A stretch of DNA of 64,000 nt from Candidatus Asgardarchaeum abyssi (GCA_040225955.1 JBECUL010000002.1:38312-102311); one strand, 5' to 3'. Positions 6,831 through 63,136 are shown, numbered from the stretch's first letter. Numbers and translations are program-made. Notes: generated by a model from the letters alone, not told the origin.

Positions 6831-6997
6831 AATGTTCTTTCTTTCTAATATCTATACCATTATTTTCATAATTGTTAAATAAAATTTTTGCAGAGTGAAG
6901 CAACTTCTTATAAATATGAAGTAAAAGGTTTTCATATATTTTCACATAAAAGTTTTTTACTTACCTTTAGAATTTATAAATAGATAAGGGGATTGTC

Positions 6998-7420
6998 ATG
7001 AAGTTAGAAAATGAAAAAATGGAACGAATTAGCGTAACTCTCCCAACGGATTTGATAAGCCGCTTGGATAATTTCATTCAAAAAACTGGATACCCGAGCA
7101 GATCCAAATTAGTTCAAGATGCGGTGAGGGAGTTTCTTGTTAAACACGAGGTTGCAGTATCTAAAGAGAAAAAGGCGATAGGCGCATTATTGGTGATTTT
7201 TAAGCATCATCCTCACAATGTTGAAACAAAGCTAACGCACATCCAACATCATTATGGTGATTTGATTCGCTCTACACTTCACATACATTTAGACGAGGCT
7301 AGATGCTTTGAAGTAATATCTTTAAATGGAGCTATAAGTGAAATGAAAGACTTAATGACTCAAATTCAAAGAGTGAAGGGTGTGCTACGGGTAGAGCTTT
7401 TCATAATGGAAGAATTGTAA
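6998..7420 (+). CDS. nikR: Nickel-responsive regulator NikR
   Basis: N-terminal RHH (RISVTLP...SRSKLVQDAVREF) and Ni ligands in IQHHY...STLHIHLDEARCFEV. Confidence 0.9.
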   Translation: MKLENEKMERISVTLPTDLISRLDNFIQKTGYPSRSKLVQDAVREFLVKHEVAVSKEKKAIGALLVIFKHHPHNVETKLTHIQHHYGDLIRSTLHIHLDEARCFEVISLNGAISEMKDLMTQIQRVKGVLRVELFIMEEL

Positions 7421-40648: not shown

Positions 40649-41380
40649 CTAACGATATACTTTGAGGATATACGTAAAAATCGCAATTGTAAATATGTAT
40701 AGGTTTGCCAAAGCATAATCGCGAAATATTACATTAAAGAATACCCTGTTTGCCATATCCATACTTCTGTTTACATAAATCCTGAACAATACGTAAAACT
40801 CAACACCCTTCTCGTAACTTATTTCCGATACAGAATTACTAAGATATGCGTTATACACCTCTATGTGCCATACTTGGTAGTCTAATTTCTTCGAGTAGTA
40901 GTATGGGAACTCTGTGTTGTTCTCGTTGAACTTCCAGATGGGCGCAGTATAGTTTATCACAAGCGTTTCGTTCTTGCCGTCAAAAACCCAGAGCCTGAAG
41001 TTTATATACGTCATGTTCAAGTATGGGAAGTCCTTGTAAAGATAACGGTCTAAATCACTTTCATTTTTTATGGGGGTCCCTCCTTTGACGATTGACCACT
41101 TATACGGTCTAATAAATATTCCCTCATGAAAGATGTCCATATAGACTTGATAGCTATCCGTCTCATCACAAAGCATGTTCCACCATTCGTTCGTAGGAGC
41201 TGTTACATTCTCGCGGGTTCCCCCTCCAATAAAAGTCAACGTTCCGATATGAACAGGAGGACCAGCTAGGAACGAGGAGTAAAACCAATAAATAAATGTA
41301 AGGTTTCCCAGTAACATGATCAATAAAAATATTAGAAGCCAACCCTTCGGAGAGACATTTTTCATGGCTATTACCTCCAT
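40649..41380 (-). CDS. Hypothetical membrane-anchored extracellular protein
   Basis: N-terminal TM, many NxS/T sequons, C-terminal hydrophobic segment. Confidence 0.6.
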   Translation of the reverse strand: MEVIAMKNVSPKGWLLIFLLIMLLGNLTFIYWFYSSFLAGPPVHIGTLTFIGGGTRENVTAPTNEWWNMLCDETDSYQVYMDIFHEGIFIRPYKWSIVKGGTPIKNESDLDRYLYKDFPYLNMTYINFRLWVFDGKNETLVINYTAPIWKFNENNTEFPYYYSKKLDYQVWHIEVYNAYLSNSVSEISYEKGVEFYVLFRIYVNRSMDMANRVFFNVIFRDYALANLYIFTIAIFTYILKVYR

Positions 41381-41431: not shown

Positions 41432-41887
41432 TTATCCTGCCATGTAGTAGTATGTCCAATAACCGAATGTGTATTGTCCTAGTGGAACTTCGTAATATCC
41501 TTGATTTTGATATATTCTTGCTATGATATTTAAAGATATAGCGTAAATCACTTTAATCACATAATTTTCGGTTTCAACATCTGGATCTAAGTTCACTGAA
41601 TAAAGATCATAAAAGAAAATTACTCCATCCGACTCACTTGTAATGCAAGGTATATCTTTGTATGTGATTGTTATTGTATTTAAATCTTGATTAAGATTTG
41701 CCGATGGGCTTACTTTAGATTGTGAAAGTGCTGACACTCCAACACCGATTATTGATGTAAGAATGCCAACAGTGCCCCATCCACATAATTTACCTATAGC
41801 ATTAACACTAGCAATAAGAAGTCTAATAGCTGTATGAGCATGTTGCTCTTCTTGAGATTCGCCAACATCCGCTAAATATTCACGCAT
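41432..41887 (-). CDS. Hypothetical protein, probably the 3' fragment of a secreted protein with a Gly-rich hydrophobic hairpin
   Basis: LLIASVNAIGKLCGWGTVGILTSIIGVGVSAL; no SD or signal peptide at the 5' end. Confidence 0.45.
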   Translation of the reverse strand: MREYLADVGESQEEQHAHTAIRLLIASVNAIGKLCGWGTVGILTSIIGVGVSALSQSKVSPSANLNQDLNTITITYKDIPCITSESDGVIFFYDLYSVNLDPDVETENYVIKVIYAISLNIIARIYQNQGYYEVPLGQYTFGYWTYYYMAG

Positions 41888-41954: not shown

Positions 41955-44900
41955 TTATATCTCCTCCTCTAAGATGCTCTCAAGTTCAATGTATTTTTCT
42001 TTAAGCCGTTTTAATGTTTCTTCGTCTGTTTGCCAATATCCTCTGCTGTTAGCTTCAAGCAACTTTTTAATTACTTTTTGAGCTGCCCATTTGTTAGCTT
42101 TTACAAGCTTATTGTATCTTTCTTCATCAAAAACTATTTTATCGGCAATCTCATTCCACATCCAGTTTTCAACTTCATTCAATGTAGAAGCCAAGCCTAA
42201 TAGGTTTTCTACGCGTGTTGCAATTTTTTCGGCTCCTGAAAAATCATGCTTTAGCATCGAGTCAAGCCATTTAGGATTTGCTAATCGAGTTATGACCCCT
42301 CGTTTTATTGCCTCTGTGGATTTCTCAACAACTATAAATTCCTTTGTAGTATCTGCCACCAACACTTGAGGCTTCTCACCTTTCAGTTCTTTTACCGTTC
42401 TTGCAACTCCACCTAGAAACTCGTAATAATGATCTAAGTCGGTGATTTCGTATTCTACAGTGTCTCTAACCTGTGTAACCAGATCTACGCTCTTTAGAAT
42501 TTCTTTAAAGATCTCTTCTGCTTTAACATTGCGGTATGTTCGTCCGTATGCGTATCTCATGCTATTCAAATATTCTCTAACGATATCCTGTTCTGTTGTC
42601 CAATTTGATGATTCTATTAATGCTGTGAGTGATGTAGCATATTCCCCTTCTGGTGGTCCAAATATTCTATAGATCTTCTCCTCTCCAATTTTTTCTTTGA
42701 GTTGTTTATTATTTGCTCTCACATAGTTCATATCATCTGGTTCATCCAATTCACTTACCTTTCTGATGGCTTGATCTAAAAGTTCAACTAAATTATAGAA
42801 GGTATCTCTAAAGATACCACAAATCGTGACCACGACGTCAATTCTTGGTCTTTTAAGCTCTTCGAGGGGTATAACTTCTATATCTCTAACATAGGGTCCC
42901 TTCCAGACTGGTTTAACACCTAATAGATGGAAAATCGTTGCAATTGTTTCTCCACCAGTTTTCATGGTTTCAAAAGCCCATAAAACGAGGTTTACTGTTC
43001 GCGGATATCGCCCATTTTGTTTAAAGAAGGTGTTTATGTAGTCCTCCGCGATCTTCCTTCCTCTTTCCAAAGCTATATCGTTTGGAACTGTTGTTGGGTC
43101 AAGCTGATATGTATTTCTTCCAGTTGGGAAAACATTAGGGTTCCTAATAATGTCTCCACCGGGACCCGGAAGAATATACTCTCCATTTAGAGCTCTACCT
43201 AAGTTTTCTAACTCCTTTGACTCTTTAATATTCTTCTTCACATGAATAAGGAAATCACGCACAGCTAGAAGGTCTTGTTCTCTCTCATCGGGCACGTTTT
43301 CTTTTATAACAAAGGTATAAATCCAGTCCCTAGCTTCATTTTCTATTTCTTCGATAATCTTACCATATCTTACACCCTGACTACTCATTTTTGATGGATT
43401 CTTTAGTAAATCAAAATATTCTAAGCCTCTTTTTTCAGCAAATATTCTAAAAAGACTCTTAATATTCCCTCGATCGTATCTGGAGATGTGAAGAAGTATA
43501 TCAACAATTTTCTGGTCATCTATTTTTTCACCGAAAGTATGAAGCCCTTCAGGAACCAAGGTTCTCTTATACTCTACAAGTTTATCATGAATCTCATCCG
43601 CTGAATTTCCTAGGTTAAACACCTTTGCTTTTTCGACTATTTTCTTTTCCAGTTCACTCGCTTTTTGCTTATCATATTGCAGAATCTCAAAGTATTGGTC
43701 TAGCAGCCTTTCAATTTCGATTAACTCTTCACTAAGTCCACTAACCATCGTTGGGGGACTTGCATGATTTATTATGAGTGCGTAGCTTCTTCTCTTAGCT
43801 ATGGAGGACTCAGAAGCATTGACAACATGATATAAGTAAATATTTGGTAGATTGCCTATTAGAATATCTGGGTAGCACTCGCTAGACAACCCTACTTCCT
43901 TACCTGGCAGAAATTCTAAAGTTCCATGAGTTCCAAGGTGGATAACTGCATCAACATTAGCTTTCTTTTCTAACCACTTATAAAAGGCAACATATTGGTG
44001 GTGGGGAGGTAAGTCTCTTGAATGATAAACTTTTGATGGATCCTCGTGCACACCCCTTGATGGTTGAATTCCAATGAAAACGTTACCAAGCTTAATTATC
44101 GGAAGGATAATCATATCACTGATTGCCATTATGCTGCCTGGAGGTTCGCCCCAAGCGCTAATAATATTTTCCTGAGCTGGCTTAGGTAGTTCCTTAAACC
44201 AATTACGATATTCCTCTAATGAAACTTTAGGAAGTTTTGCTATAGCATCTTGAGTTAATATCCAATCACCAGAGTTAACAAGCCCAGATGAAAGTATCAG
44301 CTTCTTTAATTCTTGAGGAGAGTACTCTTGTGGAATTGCGTAACCTAACTCTTTAAGATAGCTCAGTATATTTGAGAGACTTTTAAATGAGTCCAGGTAA
44401 GCTGCTTTTCCTATGTTTGCCTCACCAGGAGGATAATTGTAGAGGATAATCGCAATCTTCTTCTCTGAGTTCTTCTTTCTCCTAAGGTTAATCCATTTCT
44501 CCACCCTATTAGCAATTTTTTCTATTCTATCTTCCACAGCAATAAACTCTTGAATATCACCTGAAACGGTCTTTTCTGCTAAAACAGGACCAACAGAAAC
44601 TATTGGCTCAAAACGGCCATCAAGCTCAGGAAGTATAACAGTCGTTATTGTGACTATTGGGGATATTCCACCGCGATCTTTTTTCCATCGGTCTATAGTT
44701 TTTTCGGAGAGCAAGATTCCATGTAAGACTGGTACATTTAACCTTTTTAAAACATCAAATGTCTTCTCATGATCTCCTCCAAGAGGCCCACCTGCAAATC
44801 TGAACCAAAGTAAATCCACCATGATATCAATAATCGGTTTCTCACCATTTAGGAAGAAACGTTCAATTGCTAAATAATACCTAAGATCCGCTGAAAAGAC

Positions 44901-45701
44901 AGGAATCACACCTATTCCCTTTTCCTCTAATTTTTTTACGAGTGCTTCAACTGCTGGATATGTATGGTCATAGTGATAGCCACCATAACATAATATACCA
45001 ACAAGTGGAGCTTCTCGAAGGTCATAATCCTTTAAATAATCGTCAGTGCTTTGATATATCTTACCTGTCTTTACATTGATAATTCCCATTGATGGCATTA
45101 CAATAGGTGGTTGTGACACTTTTAGTATCTTCATGCCAGCGTATTCTTTCAGAAGCAGTATAAACATGTTGTAATAATTCTCTTCACAAGGATTATCATA
45201 ATACTTAGACAAGTACACATAATTCTTAGCATGTTTCAGAATCCCGATTGGAAGCCTCCGACCTATTTTTTCAAACCGCTCTCTCATTTGGAGAATTTTT
45301 CCATAATCGATCTTGCGTTCTTTTCTGAATAACTTTCCGATAATAGGTATCTTCTTCATCTTCTCAAAACTGGAAAAGGAAAAACTTCCCATTCGAGTTA
45401 ATCTGAAAAGTTGATCTGATCCCCCAATTAAGCATATTACTGTATTTTTTGTGTCCTTCAAGTTTTCAGTAAGTAGCTTAGTTACTATGTCACCGCCTCT
45501 GACATCGATTAAAACTATATCCGCGGTTCTTATCTCATTGACAAATTTTTCGATGTTTATAACTTCTCTATCTATATCGTATGGGCTGTAAAATTTGAAG
45601 GAAAAAATCTCACCGTATTCTTCTTTTATTTTCCTAATCGCACTGGCCATAGCCGGTTTAAACTGGTAGCCTATTAGTACTATAAGCGGTTGTCTATCCA
45701 T
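41955..45701 (-). CDS. cobN: CobN/ChlH-family chelatase large subunit
   Basis: LPELDG, NYPPGE, HLGTHGTLEFLPGK, AKRRS, PTGRN, RPRIDV, DHYYEFLGG, NPKW. Confidence 0.9.
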   Translation of the reverse strand: MDRQPLIVLIGYQFKPAMASAIRKIKEEYGEIFSFKFYSPYDIDREVINIEKFVNEIRTADIVLIDVRGGDIVTKLLTENLKDTKNTVICLIGGSDQLFRLTRMGSFSFSSFEKMKKIPIIGKLFRKERKIDYGKILQMRERFEKIGRRLPIGILKHAKNYVYLSKYYDNPCEENYYNMFILLLKEYAGMKILKVSQPPIVMPSMGIINVKTGKIYQSTDDYLKDYDLREAPLVGILCYGGYHYDHTYPAVEALVKKLEEKGIGVIPVFSADLRYYLAIERFFLNGEKPIIDIMVDLLWFRFAGGPLGGDHEKTFDVLKRLNVPVLHGILLSEKTIDRWKKDRGGISPIVTITTVILPELDGRFEPIVSVGPVLAEKTVSGDIQEFIAVEDRIEKIANRVEKWINLRRKKNSEKKIAIILYNYPPGEANIGKAAYLDSFKSLSNILSYLKELGYAIPQEYSPQELKKLILSSGLVNSGDWILTQDAIAKLPKVSLEEYRNWFKELPKPAQENIISAWGEPPGSIMAISDMIILPIIKLGNVFIGIQPSRGVHEDPSKVYHSRDLPPHHQYVAFYKWLEKKANVDAVIHLGTHGTLEFLPGKEVGLSSECYPDILIGNLPNIYLYHVVNASESSIAKRRSYALIINHASPPTMVSGLSEELIEIERLLDQYFEILQYDKQKASELEKKIVEKAKVFNLGNSADEIHDKLVEYKRTLVPEGLHTFGEKIDDQKIVDILLHISRYDRGNIKSLFRIFAEKRGLEYFDLLKNPSKMSSQGVRYGKIIEEIENEARDWIYTFVIKENVPDEREQDLLAVRDFLIHVKKNIKESKELENLGRALNGEYILPGPGGDIIRNPNVFPTGRNTYQLDPTTVPNDIALERGRKIAEDYINTFFKQNGRYPRTVNLVLWAFETMKTGGETIATIFHLLGVKPVWKGPYVRDIEVIPLEELKRPRIDVVVTICGIFRDTFYNLVELLDQAIRKVSELDEPDDMNYVRANNKQLKEKIGEEKIYRIFGPPEGEYATSLTALIESSNWTTEQDIVREYLNSMRYAYGRTYRNVKAEEIFKEILKSVDLVTQVRDTVEYEITDLDHYYEFLGGVARTVKELKGEKPQVLVADTTKEFIVVEKSTEAIKRGVITRLANPKWLDSMLKHDFSGAEKIATRVENLLGLASTLNEVENWMWNEIADKIVFDEERYNKLVKANKWAAQKVIKKLLEANSRGYWQTDEETLKRLKEKYIELESILEEEI

Positions 45702-45731
45702 GTTATTACACCTAATTGCTTATTATAGATA

Positions 45732-45759
45732 GTATGAAAAATTTAAACTAAAGTAATAC
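45732..45759. promoter_or_regulatory. NikR operator overlapping the cobN-like promoter
   Basis: GTATGA-N16-TAATAC (consensus GTATGA-N16-TCATAC), spanning TTTAAA, 31 nt upstream of ATG 45701. Confidence 0.7.
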
Positions 45760-45915
45760 TGTCGTTCAAAGATTATTTGATCATACTATTTAAGGATTGA
45801 TGTTAAAAAATAAGGCTGATTCTTAATTGGATATAAATAGAATATACTCTATTCTATAAGGCTAGTTTAGTGATGAAAAGGAATTTTAAAATGGAAAAAT
45901 TAATTATGTTATGTC

Positions 45916-46600
45916 TTAAATCTTAGAATCACTTATAATTTTTCCATCTCTTATTTTAATTATCCTATCAGCAATGGTGATAATTTCGGGATCGTGAGTA
46001 CTAATTATAAATGTGACATGGTACAGGTCTCTTAGTTTTTTCATAAGTTTTATTATACCTCTTCCAGTATTGGTATCTAAGTGTGCCGTTGGTTCATCAG
46101 CAAGAACTATTTTTGGATTGTTTATTAGTGCTCTTGCTATTGCTACGCGCTGTTGTTCACCCACACTAAGTTGCGATGGTTTATGCCTCAGTCTTTCCAT
46201 AAGTCCCACGGTTTCGATAAGTTCTAGTGCCTTATTCTTAACAGTCTCGAAATCATCTGCATATGGATACATTGGCAACGTTACATTTTCTAAAACATTA
46301 AGAAATTCGATTAAATTTATCTTCTGGAAGATAAAGCCGATGTTATTGTGCCTCCACTCAGCAGCTTCATCTTCAGAAAATTTAGTGATATCTACTTTAT
46401 CATAAAGAATCTTTCCCTTTGTAGGTTTTATTATAGCACCCAATAACAGTAGTAAGGTTGTCTTTCCACTACCAGAAGGGACCGAAAAGAACTATAAATT
46501 CGCCTTGTTCTATTTTTAAACTTACATCACGAACAGCATGGATATATCTTTTTTCGATACGATATACTTTAGATACGTTTGAAAGTTTAATTTGTGTCAT
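45916..46600 (-). pseudogene. LolD/MacB-type ABC ATPase with a +1 frameshift in Walker A
   Basis: ATG 46600 MTQIKLSNVSK...; GGTCCCTTCTGGT has one extra base, and removing it gives GPSGSGKTT; LSVGEQQR, LADEPT. Confidence 0.8.
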
Positions 46601-47613
46601 CTAGTAAGCACCTCTACAAACCTCTTTGCTACATAAACTTTTGCATAAAAATAAAGTAAGAACAGATCAATTAATACAACAAGAAGCGGATAATACACGA
46701 AAAACACGGCATTCAAAAATAAGATGTATTTCAGAGAGAGAATTGTAATATATGCAAGAAATAACAAATTAAGAAAGTATCCAAGTAGGAAAAACAGTGA
46801 ATACTCAATAAGAACTGTAAAAAGAATATACTTAAATTTCCATCCAACCGAAAACAAAATCGCACAATCGTCTCTTAAATTCAGTAAAAATAAAAAAGCA
46901 ATAATACATGTTGCGAACAACGATGTTATGGAGATAATCTTTAAATCTTCTACCTCATATTGAGATACTTTAACCAAACCGATTATTACTTTATATTCTA
47001 ATAATTCCTCTATGTTCTTTCTTACTCGTGTTACATTGGCAAAAAGATATAGCCATATCACAAGAAGTCTTATCCGTTCTATCTTTTTCGAAAACTTTAG
47101 AAGTATATCATACTGCAAAAAATCCGAGCCTATAATATCCTCTAAGCCTTCAGAATCCAATATACCAACAATCTTATATTTTGTTCCATTAAAAACTATG
47201 AAATCCCCTATTTCTTTATTCAAAACATTACTTACCACAATCTCATCTTCCGTATACGGAAATCTGCCTTTAGAGAGAGACCTTCTAACGAGACATTTCA
47301 TTTCTTCACTTGCTTCAATAAGTACGGTATCGTTAAGTATTTTGTAAGAGACCTCTGCCACGGTGATAACATCTTTTAGGTCTCTTACCTTATTGACCTG
47401 AGAAGTACTGATAAAATAATCTGGCGACTTCGAAGAGACAAAAAAGTACATTTTGTTTTGAAGCACTTCAAAGTTGTATAAGGGATAAAGAAATGTGAAG
47501 CATATAATAAAACTTATAATTAACCTTTCATGCCATTTTCTTTTTCCTCTTTTTAATAAGTATCTTGCCATGAGACTTATATTCACGATACAAACCATAA
47601 AGGAAAACCCCAC
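46597..47613 (-). CDS. FtsX-like ABC permease
   Basis: KGRFP loop, DDCAILFSVGW coupling motif, TMs; ATGA overlap with the ATPase. Confidence 0.7.
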   Translation of the reverse strand: MGFSFMVCIVNISLMARYLLKRGKRKWHERLIISFIICFTFLYPLYNFEVLQNKMYFFVSSKSPDYFISTSQVNKVRDLKDVITVAEVSYKILNDTVLIEASEEMKCLVRRSLSKGRFPYTEDEIVVSNVLNKEIGDFIVFNGTKYKIVGILDSEGLEDIIGSDFLQYDILLKFSKKIERIRLLVIWLYLFANVTRVRKNIEELLEYKVIIGLVKVSQYEVEDLKIISITSLFATCIIAFLFLLNLRDDCAILFSVGWKFKYILFTVLIEYSLFFLLGYFLNLLFLAYITILSLKYILFLNAVFFVYYPLLVVLIDLFLLYFYAKVYVAKRFVEVLTR

Positions 47614-47636
47614 ATCATAATTACTGAAGTGAAAAA

Positions 47637-48836
47637 CTATACTCGGAGCACTTTCTCTGCACTCACATTATAAGCTTTTATTATTGCAGGCAATGAAGAT
47701 ATAACTGTAAGAGATGTAGCTATGCATATTTGTATCGGAAGCATAACAACAAAGAAGAGATATATCATATAAAGATTAGGAATAGAGAACATAATTAATG
47801 AGCTAAGTAAAAGAGATATCGACAATCCTAAAATACTGGAAATTATCCCAAATATCGTATATCTCATAATGAAAAATTTCAGTATATCATTTCGTCTCCA
47901 TCCAAGTACTTTAAGAAGCGAAATTTCATTTGTTTTTCGTCTTATCTCCCAGATCATAATGAAAACCGAGAGGATGTATCCTATGAGTGTAGGATATAAG
48001 GTGCTTTCAACCAATAGTTCATGGTAACTCTTTTCATACTCAGTTACCGTCTCAACAACCACACCATGTGGATATTTTGATTTTATCCTATTAGCCACCA
48101 TGTCGATATCATAGCCTTCCTTGACTTTTACATTAATTGCATACTCAAAATCCACTTTCAACTCCGCACGTTCAGTAAAATTAAGCTGAGAAATTGCTTT
48201 ATATAACTTTAAATATGTTCCTAAGGGTGCATATACAGCAATTATATCAGTAAGGTCCAAATAAGCCTCTTCACGTCCATTCATTAATTGATTTGTAATT
48301 ACACCAACTATTGGCAGGCTGGCAACACCTAAATCCAACATGGTTTTATTTTCACCAATGCCTTTATACTCGCCTATATCTTTAAGAAGCTGCTCACCAA
48401 TACTCTCAATTATAACCGAATTCTCATAATTTGATTCGAAAAATCTACCCCTTACTATGAATTTGGGATGAGGAAATGTGATATCCTCAACATTACACCA
48501 ACTCAACTCTAAATAATAACTTCTATTCTGATACCTAAATTTTCCCGAAAAATAGATTTTTGCGGGATATACGGTCCATTTCACTCCTTCAATTTCTCTA
48601 ATAGCCTCTTCGATCACGGGAAAGTCTTCAACATCACCTAGAGGATGTACGATGATTTCAGTAGGCCACATCTGCAAATCCCAATATTCATCAGCTTCAG
48701 TGTATATTATAAGATTCCTAATTACAATGGAAACGAAAAATGATGAAACTATAAGCAGAATAAATACAGCGATACTGCTTTTTCTGCGCAAGTCTTTGGA
48801 CAATAGATGTAGTAATATAAATATTTTCTTGGGCAA
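47637..48836 (-). CDS. FtsX/MacB-like ABC permease
   Basis: RGRFF, NEISLLKVLGW, TMs; TTG after GAGGTGA. Confidence 0.8.
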   Translation of the reverse strand: MPKKIFILLHLLSKDLRRKSSIAVFILLIVSSFFVSIVIRNLIIYTEADEYWDLQMWPTEIIVHPLGDVEDFPVIEEAIREIEGVKWTVYPAKIYFSGKFRYQNRSYYLELSWCNVEDITFPHPKFIVRGRFFESNYENSVIIESIGEQLLKDIGEYKGIGENKTMLDLGVASLPIVGVITNQLMNGREEAYLDLTDIIAVYAPLGTYLKLYKAISQLNFTERAELKVDFEYAINVKVKEGYDIDMVANRIKSKYPHGVVVETVTEYEKSYHELLVESTLYPTLIGYILSVFIMIWEIRRKTNEISLLKVLGWRRNDILKFFIMRYTIFGIISSILGLSISLLLSSLIMFSIPNLYMIYLFFVVMLPIQICIATSLTVISSLPAIIKAYNVSAEKVLRV

Positions 48837-61114: not shown

Positions 61115-63136
61115 ATGCCTCATCACATAAAGAGATACGTTTTCCCCTTTTCAGCGATTGTTGGCCAAGAAAATATGAAACTTGCCTTGCTATTGAATGC
61201 CATAAATCCGAGGATAGGCGGTGTTCTGATTCGTGGTCAAAAGGGAACTGGAAAATCTACAGCGGTTAGAGCTTTAGCTGATCTATTGCCAGAGATAGAT
61301 GTTGTAGAAGGTTGTCCATTCAATTGCAACCCTCATAATCCAAGAGAGATGTGCGATTCTTGTTTTTCGAAATTTGAGCATGGAGAAAAGCTAAAAGTAA
61401 AAAGAAGAAAAGTCAAAATAGTTCTACTTCCTCTCAATGCAACAGTTGATAGGGTTGTCGGAGCACTTGATATAAGTAAAGCACTAAAAGAGGGAATTAA
61501 AGCTTTAGAACCTGGACTGCTTGCAGAGGCACATAGAGGTATTCTCTATATTGATGAAGTAAATCTTCTTGATGATTACATCGCAGATATTCTCTTAGAT
61601 GTAGCTGTATCAGGGATCAATGTTGTGGAAAGAGAAGGAGTTTCTGTTTCTCACCCATCAAATTTCATTCTAATAGGCACTATGAACCCAGAAGAGGGCG
61701 AACTAAGACCACAATTGCTTGATAGATTTGGACTGCAGGTTACGGTGGAAGAATTAAAAGATCCTAAGGACAGAATAGAAATAATCAAAAGAGTGGAAGC
61801 CTTTGAAAACGATCCTGAGGAGTTTCTTGAGCAATTTAAAGAGAAACAAAAATTATTGAGAAATAAGATTATTCGGGCAAGAGAATTACTGCCCAAGGTG
61901 GAAATTTCGGACGATTTACTTCTACTGATAGTTTCATTATGCTTAAAGATAGGAGCCAGTAGCCACCGTGCGGAGATTACTTTAACAAGAACCGCTAAGA
62001 CATTGGCAGCATTTGATGGAAGAACCTACGTAACCGAAGAAGATATCAAAAGAGCAGCAATTCTTGCGTTGCCACATAGAATAAGGAAAATGCCGTTTGA
62101 AGTACCACAACTTGATTATGAAGCCTTAGAAAAGACAATGCATGAAGTCAAAAACGACTTAAAAATCTCAGGAGAACAGATAACTCAAATAAGAGAACAT
62201 CTCGAAAGAGAAAAAGACAGCAACAAAGAAGATAATGAGATAACTAGCACTGGAAGCAATAAGAGCACACAAAAGAAGAAAGTGTTTGACATACGTAAAG
62301 TATCTGACTTAAAGCTAAATAAAAATTTTACAGCCGCTGCTAAAGCAACTAGACCAGGACGAAGATTAAAAACCATTAGCAATAATAAGAGAGGAATCTA
62401 TTTCAACTCCAGAATACCTAAAGATAAGAAGATCCATGACATTGCATTTGATGCGACTCTTAGAGCTGCAGCCCTCCGAATGATCAAAAACAAAAATAAA
62501 TCTCAACAGCTTCAAATACAAAAAGAGGACCTACGCGAAAAAATCAGACATACTAAAACCTCTTCACTCGTTGTCTTCCTTGTTGATGCAAGTGGGTCAA
62601 TGGCTGCTATGAAAAGAATGGAAATCGCAAAGGGAGCTATGTTCTCCATATTAAAGGATTCCTATGTCAATCGGGATTTTGTTGCCTTTATAGCTTTCTT
62701 CGGAAATCAAGCAGAAATTTTAGTCCCTCCAACAAGAAACTTAGAAGCAGCAATAGCTACGCTTCGCAATCTGCCTACAGGCGGAAAGACACCACTAAGT
62801 CTTGGATTATTAACTGCATATAATGTCATAAAAAATGAAATTGTCTTCAAAGGAAAGCAAATAACACCATACTTGGTAATTATAACAGATGGAAAAGCAA
62901 ATGTTCCCCTAAGCCCACATACTGACATTAAAGACGAAATAATACTCTACTCTGAGAAAATAAAATCTCTCGGAACAAAAGTCCTCATCATAGATACACG
63001 ACCACCAATAGAGGACATAATCAAACTTCCTAATTATCTTGATGACATTGCAAGGCATACAAATGCAGAGTACTTACGAATCGATAATCTCAATAAAGAT
63101 AAATTGTTCCGTATCATAAAGTGTTATAAAGAGTAA
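61115..63136 (+). CDS. chlD: Chelatase AAA+ / vWA subunit (ChlI-ChlD-type)
   Basis: [43 protein letters not shown], acidic linker, MIDAS DASGSM, TDG. Confidence 0.9.

Follow-up and report, generated by a model that had tools for sequence, protein, structure and literature searches.

A CobN/ChlH-type chelatase gene behind a NikR-type operator in Candidatus Asgardarchaeum abyssi: likely induction by nickel starvation and a possible role in nickel release from tetrapyrroles

In the Asgard archaeon Candidatus Asgardarchaeum abyssi, a 64,000-nucleotide stretch of DNA (GCA_040225955.1 JBECUL010000002.1:38312-102311, hereafter the window) carries a gene for the large subunit of a class I chelatase, and its promoter holds a palindrome that we read as an operator of the nickel sensor NikR. 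The best explanation overall, which we hold tentatively and put a little short of an even chance, is a NikR-controlled chelatase, induced by nickel starvation, that releases nickel from imported Ni-tetrapyrroles. The window lies on contig C2 of the host metagenome-assembled genome (MAG; G000, 2.64 Mb in 189 contigs), which was compared with 60 relatives, making up a set of 61 Asgard genomes. Coordinates are window positions unless a contig label (C, L, G or P) is stated. The features on which the analysis rests are as follows.

41955-45701, minus strand: cobN/chlH-type gene, 1248 aa, encoding the substrate-binding large subunit of an ATP-dependent chelatase of class I (open reading frame, Pfam, NCBIfam and structure matches)
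45732-45759, 31 nt before the ATG: NikR-type operator, 28-bp imperfect palindrome of the form 7-N14-7 (sequence, matrix and orthologues)
45741-45747, minus strand: TTTAAAT, TATA-like, inside the operator spacer (read from the sequence)
45720-45727, minus strand: TATAATAA, second TATA-like element (read from the sequence)
45709-45713, minus strand: AGGTG, Shine-Dalgarno-like element (read from the sequence)
6998-7420, plus strand: nikR, 140 aa, presumed repressor (Pfam NikR_C and RHH_1, NCBIfam NikR)
61115-63136, plus strand: chlD-type gene, 673 aa, AAA+ plus VWA, motor subunit (Pfam AAA_lid_2, VWA_2 and Mg_chelatase)
L004:1096-2196 on contig C23: ChlI-type gene, AAA+ partner subunit

The operator and its targets

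The sequence-only reading had placed a NikR box 31 nt upstream of the cobN-type gene and over TATA-like elements, and this location was confirmed. On the plus strand the box reads GTATGAA-N14-GTAATAC, which is the same site as GTATGA-N16-TAATAC, and on the gene strand the promoter runs A-GTATTAC-TTTAGTTTAAATTT-TTCATAC-TATC-TATAATAA-GCAATT-AGGTG-TAATAAC-ATG. The distal half GTATTAC (45753-45759) fits the consensus of the lineage, GTAWTAC-N14-GTAWTAC, and the proximal half TTCATAC (45732-45738) carries two mismatches. TTTAAAT, TATAATAA and AGGTG would act as promoter and ribosome-binding elements; an A/T-rich, TATA-like spacer is also present in most of the orthologous sites.

The assignment of this box to NikR held for the operator type of the lineage and failed for the E. 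coli consensus, GTATGA-N16-TCATAC, which is not enriched in the genome. With at most one mismatch, that consensus has five host sites at N16, a count within the 2–10 obtained with the remaining spacers of 12 to 20 nt, and all four besides the cobN site fall inside open reading frames (ORFs). It was rejected as a regulon motif on these grounds and the lineage consensus was used instead. Exact GTAWTAC-N14-GTAWTAC occurs at 19 sites in 12 of the 61 Asgard genomes, as against 8 for the reversed control. The real sites, placed 4–60 nt upstream of genes, share the extended consensus TTAGTAWTACTTTTT-N4-AAAAAGTAWTACTAA with conserved T and A runs within the spacer. Their 7-N14-7 geometry and GT..TAC halves agree with the published NikR signals, GTGTTAC-N13/14-GTAACAC and GTATGAT-N13/14-ATCATAC (Rodionov et al. 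2004, PMC545781). Like the E. coli nik operator and the delta-proteobacterial signal described there, the Asgard operator is an inverted repeat of 27–28 bp whose 7-nt halves are separated by about two helical turns, and it covers the promoters of nickel importers and nikR; it differs from them in its GTAWTAC halves, in the T/A runs of the spacer, in spanning an archaeal TATA box and in having a class I chelatase among its targets.

Among the relatives, with the genes identified by Pfam, the operator was found upstream of nikR (L037 and L038) and in a divergent nikR/cbiM gap (L039; L040 is alike by ORF position only, its flanking ORFs not having been scanned). It precedes CbiM/NikM importers in three families (L039, L043, L046, L047), a Peripla_BP_2 binding protein (L035) and cobN itself (L034, L042). 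A matrix was trained on 14 operator sites, none of them upstream of cobN, and the cobN promoters were then scanned blind, with 2642 upstream windows of the host genome as the null. The window site scores 10.8 bits and ranks 13th of 2,628,813 genome positions, and only 0.11% of the null windows score as high. Unremarkable when judged by the E. coli consensus, it does not appear to be a chance match when judged by the operator of the lineage.

The expectation that the motif would recur upstream of orthologues was borne out. In cobN orthologues of other Asgard families (54–59% identity) the same upstream place holds GTAWTAC-N14-GTAWTAC or a near match, among them a perfect site in G027 (CAGTATTAC-N14-GTAATACTG) and GTATTAC-N14-GTGTTAC 15 nt before the cobN ATG in G058 (family f19). 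Among the orthologues, eleven cobN upstream regions reach the top 1% of the null; they represent families f1, f6, f7, f14 and f18 as well as a Promethearchaeota MAG, P0015 and a contig of the non-Asgard P0040. Scores of 16–34 bits were obtained in G047, three f6 genomes, two f18 genomes, the Promethearchaeota MAG and P0040; the Baldrarchaeia and P0015 regions reach 6–7 bits, yet still lie within that top 1%. The T-for-G change in the proximal half of the window site recurs in the family f6 sites. Taken together, eight or more lineages, of which one lies outside the Asgard archaea, carry the operator just upstream of nikR genes, CbiM/NikM importers and cobN orthologues. The matrix found no site upstream of the CobN of a cob cluster in family f3, of the Nezhaarchaeales, Methanothrix, P0052 and P0057 genes, or of the gene in the F430 cluster of P0014. 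From this contrast between boxed orthologues and the unboxed genes of cob and F430 clusters, the association of the box with the chelatase is both conserved and specific.

The sole perfect site of the host, TAGTAATAC-N14-GTATTACCA, lies on the same contig 10.5 kb before the window start (G000:C2:27829-27856; L026:5830-5857), 16 nt upstream of an operon encoding a ZnuA-type binding protein, an FmdE-domain protein, an ABC ATPase and an ABC-3 permease. Because no CbiM/NikM was found in the host genome, this boxed operon may encode the transporter by which nickel is taken up; in Methanothermobacter, a NikR homologue has been noted to adjoin a ZnuABC cluster (Kaster et al. 2011, PMC3087415).

NikR and the inferred nickel control

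As the sequence-only reading had stated, nikR lies in the same window (6998-7420). Its product carries NikR_C and RHH domains and scores 130.5 bits against the NCBIfam NikR cut-off of 111, and in an alignment with P. horikoshii NikR 2bj1 it shows all four Ni ligands (H, HxH, C); with a single NikR_C match in the host genome, it is the only NikR found there. The same motif precedes nikR, the CbiM/NikM importers and the cobN orthologues, and from this shared operator induction under nickel starvation is the likely regulation of the cobN-type gene, as had been proposed. We infer that NikR binds and represses at the cobN promoter, and cobN is probably under NikR control.

About 60 nt upstream of the host nikR there is a different palindrome, ATATGAA-N10-TTCATAT (6914-6937), which does not have the GTAWTAC-N14 form. 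In family f18 a short TP_methylase-like gene directly adjoins a NikR paralogue (G046:C187:60815-61553 and G037:C1:2238146-2238988). Adjacency of nikR and cobN in family f6 was considered and rejected, the upstream ORFs of about 140 aa having turned out to be PIN and HEPN toxin-antitoxin genes.

The chelatase and its partners

The cobN-type gene, the only CobN in the host genome, starts with an ATG at 45701 on the minus strand behind an intergenic gap of 214 nt. Its product matches Pfam CobN-Mg_chel (PF02514) with 1156 bits over profile positions 2–1090 of 1090 (residues 166–1230 of 1248), and the N-terminal DUF3479 is matched as well. The NCBIfam equivalog cut-off for BchH (TIGR02025) is passed, with 965.1 bits against 829, and that for CobN (TIGR02257) is missed, with 734.4 bits against 822.05; the remaining CobN models are likewise below cut-off. 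Among solved structures ChlH gives the best score (4zhj, 649 bits), ahead of M. tuberculosis CobN (503), CobN 9uk9 (453) and HmuS (374). In the alignment to ChlH the cleft motifs are intact: H588-LGT-H592-G, E596, E631 and D1090-H1091-YY-E1094-FLGG. E596 and E631 align with ChlH E625 and E660, columns that are fixed by the PDB entries of wild-type ChlH and of its E660D, E660W and E625K mutants. By these matches, the gene encodes an H/N subunit of a class I chelatase with an intact cleft, which is predicted to be catalytically able. The active-site glutamate was tried as an indicator of the metal and discarded, since at the position of ChlH E660 CobN 9uk9 has a glutamate as well, and not a histidine. 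The database entry nearest to the protein, with 97% identity, bears the label Candidatus Odinarchaeota.

The window itself holds the ChlD-type gene, which misses the cut-off of NCBIfam TIGR02442 'putative cobaltochelatase' narrowly (774.7 bits against 779.45), and the ChlI-type gene lies on another contig, so that cobN, chlD and chlI are scattered across the host genome. Since CobN, ChlD and ChlI are all encoded there, the genome specifies a complete three-subunit class I chelatase. Full-length ChlD orthologues are limited to the cobN-positive relatives and are always found on the cobN contig (nine relatives); in eight of the nine, chlD is adjacent to cobN or within about 1.5 kb of it, and in G055 the spacing is about 3.6 kb. 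Where the two genes are divergent neighbours, in Baldrarchaeia, Promethearchaeota and P0015, the box falls within the shared gap.

Tetrapyrrole metabolism of the host

The claim that no other cobalamin or chlorophyll genes are present was inexact for the window, which holds the ChlD-type gene, and stood for the pathway genes proper, which were not found in the whole genome. Tetrapyrrole methylase (PF00590), ALAD (PF00490), CbiX (PF01903) and CbiB were all sought in the host genome and not found, nor was McrA, and CfbD exceeded its cut-off in none of the 61 Asgard genomes. As to a (bacterio)chlorophyll pathway or a protoporphyrin supply, no ALAD or tetrapyrrole methylases were found, the chlorophyll-specific genes not having been searched for individually. 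A complete B12 pathway elsewhere in the genome had been named as evidence that would speak against a nickel-handling chelatase; no genes for tetrapyrrole, B12 or F430 synthesis were found. With five B12-binding domains in its genome, the host appears to use cobamides but not to make them.

MAG incompleteness alone is unlikely to explain the missing ring genes, because the pattern recurs in ten further Asgard genomes with cobN, which belong to six families and have 0–1 TP_methylase matches each, the single matches being short and partial. Genuine cbi clusters occur in a single Asgard family, f3, whose CobN is distant (35% identity) and unboxed.

Relatives of the chelatase

In a quick maximum-likelihood tree of 34 CobN/ChlH proteins, the window protein falls in a fully supported clade with most of the boxed Asgard genes, the boxed P0040 gene, a Nezhaarchaeales gene and the P0014 gene. 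The P0014 orthologue (56% identity) is part of an F430 cluster, with cfbB-cfbD-cfbE on one side and cfbA on the other (L088:2816-11273). On that contig the scores of CfbE and CfbD exceed their NCBIfam cut-offs, that of CfbB exceeds only the generic cobB cut-off, and that of CfbA falls just short of its own. The Nezhaarchaeales orthologue is situated in a cbi/B12 cluster beside cbiMNQ and chlD. A sister clade unites the boxed f18 genes with paralogues that follow BtuF-type importers. Such arrangements are PBP2-FecCD-ABC-CobN-CobN-ChlD in Thermococcus sp. CX2 (L079:1-11497) and PBP2-CobN in Methanothrix (L085:4790-9729), and the position of CobN after BtuF/FecB-type importers points to the processing of an imported chelate.

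In the Nezhaarchaeales cluster (L080:3709-6000), cbiMNQ and cobN-chlD each carry the palindrome TGGATAATCNATCCAGC just after a TTTATATG element, which suggests that a second regulator co-controls transporter and chelatase in that group.

Discussion

The use of CobN/ChlH homologues in Archaea has been described as unclear (the EMBO J 2025 paper on HmuS), and what the many archaeal members outside B12 and chlorophyll synthesis do is a recognised question; for these proteins the present locus offers a testable role in nickel starvation. Three handles are available: a defined cis-element by which the family is linked to NikR in several archaeal lineages, hosts in which no tetrapyrrole, F430 or Mcr genes were found, which argues against the usual biosynthetic roles, and an orthologue embedded in an F430 gene cluster. 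All three agree with the single experimental observation available, made in a methanogen: CobN1 and NikR1 of M. marburgensis are made at a high level only under nickel limitation (Nature 2025, PMC12350162). The authors of that work call CobN1 a 'possible metal-chelating protein', and CobN-like proteins had been suggested as nickel chelatases by Kaster et al. (2011, PMC3087415). As an archaeal CobN made under nickel limitation together with a NikR homologue, CobN1 behaves as the operator would predict here; its host, unlike ours, makes F430 and B12, and no operator or regulon has been described for it. This comparison is one of reported behaviour, not of sequence.

The mechanism that we propose may be outlined as follows. 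When nickel is sufficient, Ni-NikR bound across the TATA region would block the access of TBP and TFB and keep cobN off. When nickel is short, the H subunit would be expressed along with the boxed ZnuA-type metal ABC importer operon, and would work with ChlD and ChlI as an ATP-driven class I chelatase. Because no tetrapyrrole, F430 or Mcr genes were found in the host, the enzyme is expected to act on an imported substrate, which would be a metal-tetrapyrrole or a similar chelate. The gene would be switched on by nickel shortage alongside importers, and a role in nickel acquisition is favoured on that account: Ni-tetrapyrroles such as F430, or what is left of it after breakdown, would be scavenged and their nickel released at the cost of ATP, by what would be a cytoplasmic nickel counterpart of HmuS. 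Ni(II) in tetrapyrrole rings is kinetically inert, and this could explain why the AAA+ motor has been retained here while HmuS needs none. A nickel-related role on a tetrapyrrole of whatever kind we consider somewhat probable. De-chelation specifically is speculative and, taken by itself, rather unlikely; substrate and reaction direction are likewise speculative. Wider still, and doubtful at this stage, is the idea that the whole archaeal ChlH-like clade (Asgard, Thermoproteota, methanogens) is a nickel-starvation machine which in the auxotrophic Asgard members acts as an ATP-driven Ni de-chelatase on F430 and the like from methanogens or anaerobic methanotrophic archaea (ANME).

Among the known systems, HmuS provides the precedent for de-chelation in the superfamily, its substrate being haem (PMC12583661, PMC6460266). 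HmuS is described as a membrane-anchored, ATP-independent protein that works with NADH, on the periplasmic side in the cell model of that paper, with 1463 aa, predicted N- and C-terminal membrane helices, a Met-rich insertion of 120 residues and the head/neck haem ligands Met-79 and His-254 (PMC12583661). The window system resembles HmuS/BtuS of Bacteroidota (9d26) in superfamily, in its auxotrophic host, in the HxGxHG and DHxxEF(L/M)GG histidine motifs and in an apparent tie to the acquisition of the metal concerned, which for the window gene runs through the inferred NikR control. It differs in having ChlD and ChlI partners and no hmu operon, and in a protein that is 215 residues shorter, contains 19 methionines in total and lacks room for the terminal helices or the Met-rich insertion. 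Because the Pfam match over residues 166–1230 and the length of 1248 aa leave no such room, the window protein is not of the HmuS type as described in PMC12583661. With the Mg-chelatase ChlH/BchH + ChlI + ChlD (Synechocystis ChlH 4zhj/6ysg) it shares the best structure match, the BchH cut-off, the DUF3479 architecture, the equivalents of E625 and E660, the HxGTHG motif and the ChlI- and ChlD-type partners; the host differs in showing no genes for phototrophy or tetrapyrrole synthesis, in the nickel-repressor operator and in the scattering of the three genes. Cobaltochelatase CobN of the CobNST enzyme (7c6o, 9uk9) is alike in superfamily and fold class, in the closeness of the ChlD score to the TIGR02442 cut-off and in the one orthologue within a cbi cluster, and the window system differs from it in scoring below the CobN equivalog cut-off, in the lack of a detectable cob/cbi pathway and in having ChlI/ChlD rather than CobS/CobT as partners.

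Several observations weigh against the release of nickel from imported Ni-tetrapyrroles under NikR control. The window site is weak, with 10.8 bits as compared with 19–34 in most orthologues and with both mismatches in the proximal half, and 12 other host positions, several of them inside ORFs, score at least as high. No GTAWTAC-N14 box was found within two mismatches upstream of the host nikR, and autoregulation of nikR by the same box was rejected on that basis; none was seen upstream of chlD or chlI in the host either. No tetrapyrrole importer was found in the host, where searches for a Peripla_BP_2 (BtuF-type) binding protein and for CbiM gave no match. The absence of ring genes is read from a MAG of 93.5% completeness and 7.8% contamination. 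As regards the reaction, the protein scores nearer to ChlH and CobN than to HmuS and its AAA+ partners are retained, while the cbi context of the Nezhaarchaeales orthologue points to forward Co/Ni insertion as the ancestral job. Nor do the active-site residues identify the metal or the direction of the reaction, because they are common across the superfamily, to ChlH and CobN and, where this could be checked, to HmuS.

The main rival is high-affinity insertion of nickel or cobalt into a ring, which in this host would be a salvaged one, by an ATP-driven enzyme that would correspond, at low nickel, to the ATP-independent CfbA/CbiX chelatases. Forward insertion is the more natural reading of the orthologues in clusters, since the P0014 gene stands beside cfbA and the Nezhaarchaeales gene beside CbiMNQ and ChlD, both in the same supported clade as the window protein; it also accords with the retained ChlD/ChlI partners, with the best score to ChlH, with the induction of CobN1 by nickel limitation in an F430-making methanogen (PMC12350162) and with the nickel-chelatase proposal of Kaster et al. 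(2011). The present host, however, shows neither a source of rings nor a use for the product, given the negative searches for PF00590, ALAD, CbiX, CbiB, McrA and, in all 61 genomes, CfbD. Nor are metal-free ring precursors known as an abundant environmental resource, which likewise counts against insertion, and we regard it as unlikely here. An ordinary cobaltochelatase of B12 synthesis, whose companion pathway genes an incomplete MAG would have missed and whose box would be incidental, is very improbable. The name of the TIGR02442 model matched by ChlD, the Nezhaarchaeales cbi cluster, the five B12-binding domains and a MAG that is 93% complete would agree with it, but none of the PF00590 genes (at least five expected), ALAD, CbiX or CbiB was found, ten relatives in six families repeat the pattern, the protein is below the TIGR02257 cut-off, and f3, the sole Asgard family with a cbi cluster, has a distant and unboxed CobN.

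It could also be that the window box has decayed or is a chance match, and that cobN is no longer nickel-regulated in this host. The two mismatches in one half-site, the score of 10.8 bits, the 12 positions as high and the lack of enrichment of the E. coli-type consensus are what such a site would look like; nevertheless, orthologues from at least eight lineages have the box at the same promoter position, only 0.11% of upstream windows do as well, and family f6 shares the T-for-G change, which makes decay quite unlikely. Nor do we give much weight to a role without any tetrapyrrole, as a nickel-binding buffer or an ATP-driven metallochaperone for CODH (carbon monoxide dehydrogenase) and [NiFe]-hydrogenase at low nickel. 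No ring source or importer was found, the 'possible metal-chelating protein' label (PMC12350162) fits, and ChlD follows the CODH/hydrogenase cluster in the window; the sequence-only reading had in fact supposed that the chelatase serves this locus. That supposition was not upheld, chlD lying beside cobN and not beside CODH in the relatives and no box standing before the CODH operon. Adjacency of chlD to the CODH/hydrogenase cluster was seen in the host alone among the relatives compared, and the position of ChlD after the hydrogenase genes is idiosyncratic, because chlD is close to cobN in all relatives. In addition, the tetrapyrrole-site residues of ChlH are all kept and a CooC-type maturation ATPase is already encoded within the CODH cluster.

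If nickel release from imported Ni-tetrapyrroles is indeed the function, an ATP-driven nickel de-chelatase would be a reaction not yet demonstrated in biology. The protein family, NikR, its operators and the nickel-limitation-induced CobN1 (2025) are already known. The earlier statement that no system of this kind has been described has to be narrowed accordingly: a CobN homologue made only under nickel limitation has been reported from Methanothermobacter (2025). In the literature searched, no description was found of the Asgard operator consensus, of a conserved class I chelatase in a NikR regulon or of its persistence in ring-auxotrophic hosts. The locus yields a testable hypothesis on the nickel economy of anoxic sediments, including possible cross-feeding of cofactor-borne nickel. 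A second outcome is that the operator consensus of NikR in Asgard archaea can be given, along with a ZnuA-type operon as a candidate importer of nickel.

Neighbouring genes and minor observations

Behind the stop codon of cobN there is a T-run, and the downstream ORFs at 41432-41887 and 40649-41380, considered as operon partners, have no Pfam/NCBIfam match and no similarity to ORFs flanking the orthologues; because of the lack of matches and conserved counterparts, and of the T-run, they were treated as unrelated. The upstream ABC/FtsX genes (45916-48836) were also rejected as linked genes, not being kept beside the orthologues. In the relatives the neighbours of cobN other than chlD are unconserved and include toxin-antitoxin genes and orphan ORFs.

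Some further matches to the operator were recorded. The second-best matrix match of the host (22.6 bits) lies between the genes for a TRASH-domain metal regulator and a nucleotidyltransferase (G000:C34:16902-16929; L027:2903-2930). In G046 (contig C95), two tandem exact sites precede a Trep_Strep-family membrane protein (L048:1501-1565), possibly an orphan importer that shares a regulon with CbiM and cobN there; a search for Trep_Strep found none in the host but matched no control genome either, so that it has little weight. A one-mismatch site stands at the start of a gene for an FmdE and zinc-ribbon protein, 2 kb from a boxed cobN (L083:12015-12042), and FmdE-domain proteins thus adjoin the motif twice, here and in the ZnuA-type operon of the host. 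The 28-nt string GTATTACCTCAATACTCACAAATATCAC is repeated at G000:C24:815, C39:7206 and C144:2089 and probably belongs to a repeated mobile element rather than to an operator.

With PF00590 unmatched in the host, diphthine synthase (Dph5) is also among the genes not found. A second ChlI/ChlD-like frame of the host (G000:C14:34491-35569; L005) has several in-frame stops in its first part, which could reflect a degenerate copy or the disruption of a gene by inserted DNA. The DNA studied here was detected in marine and sediment metagenomes, with no run recorded as RNA among those listed as containing it, and four runs contain at least half of the sampled words.

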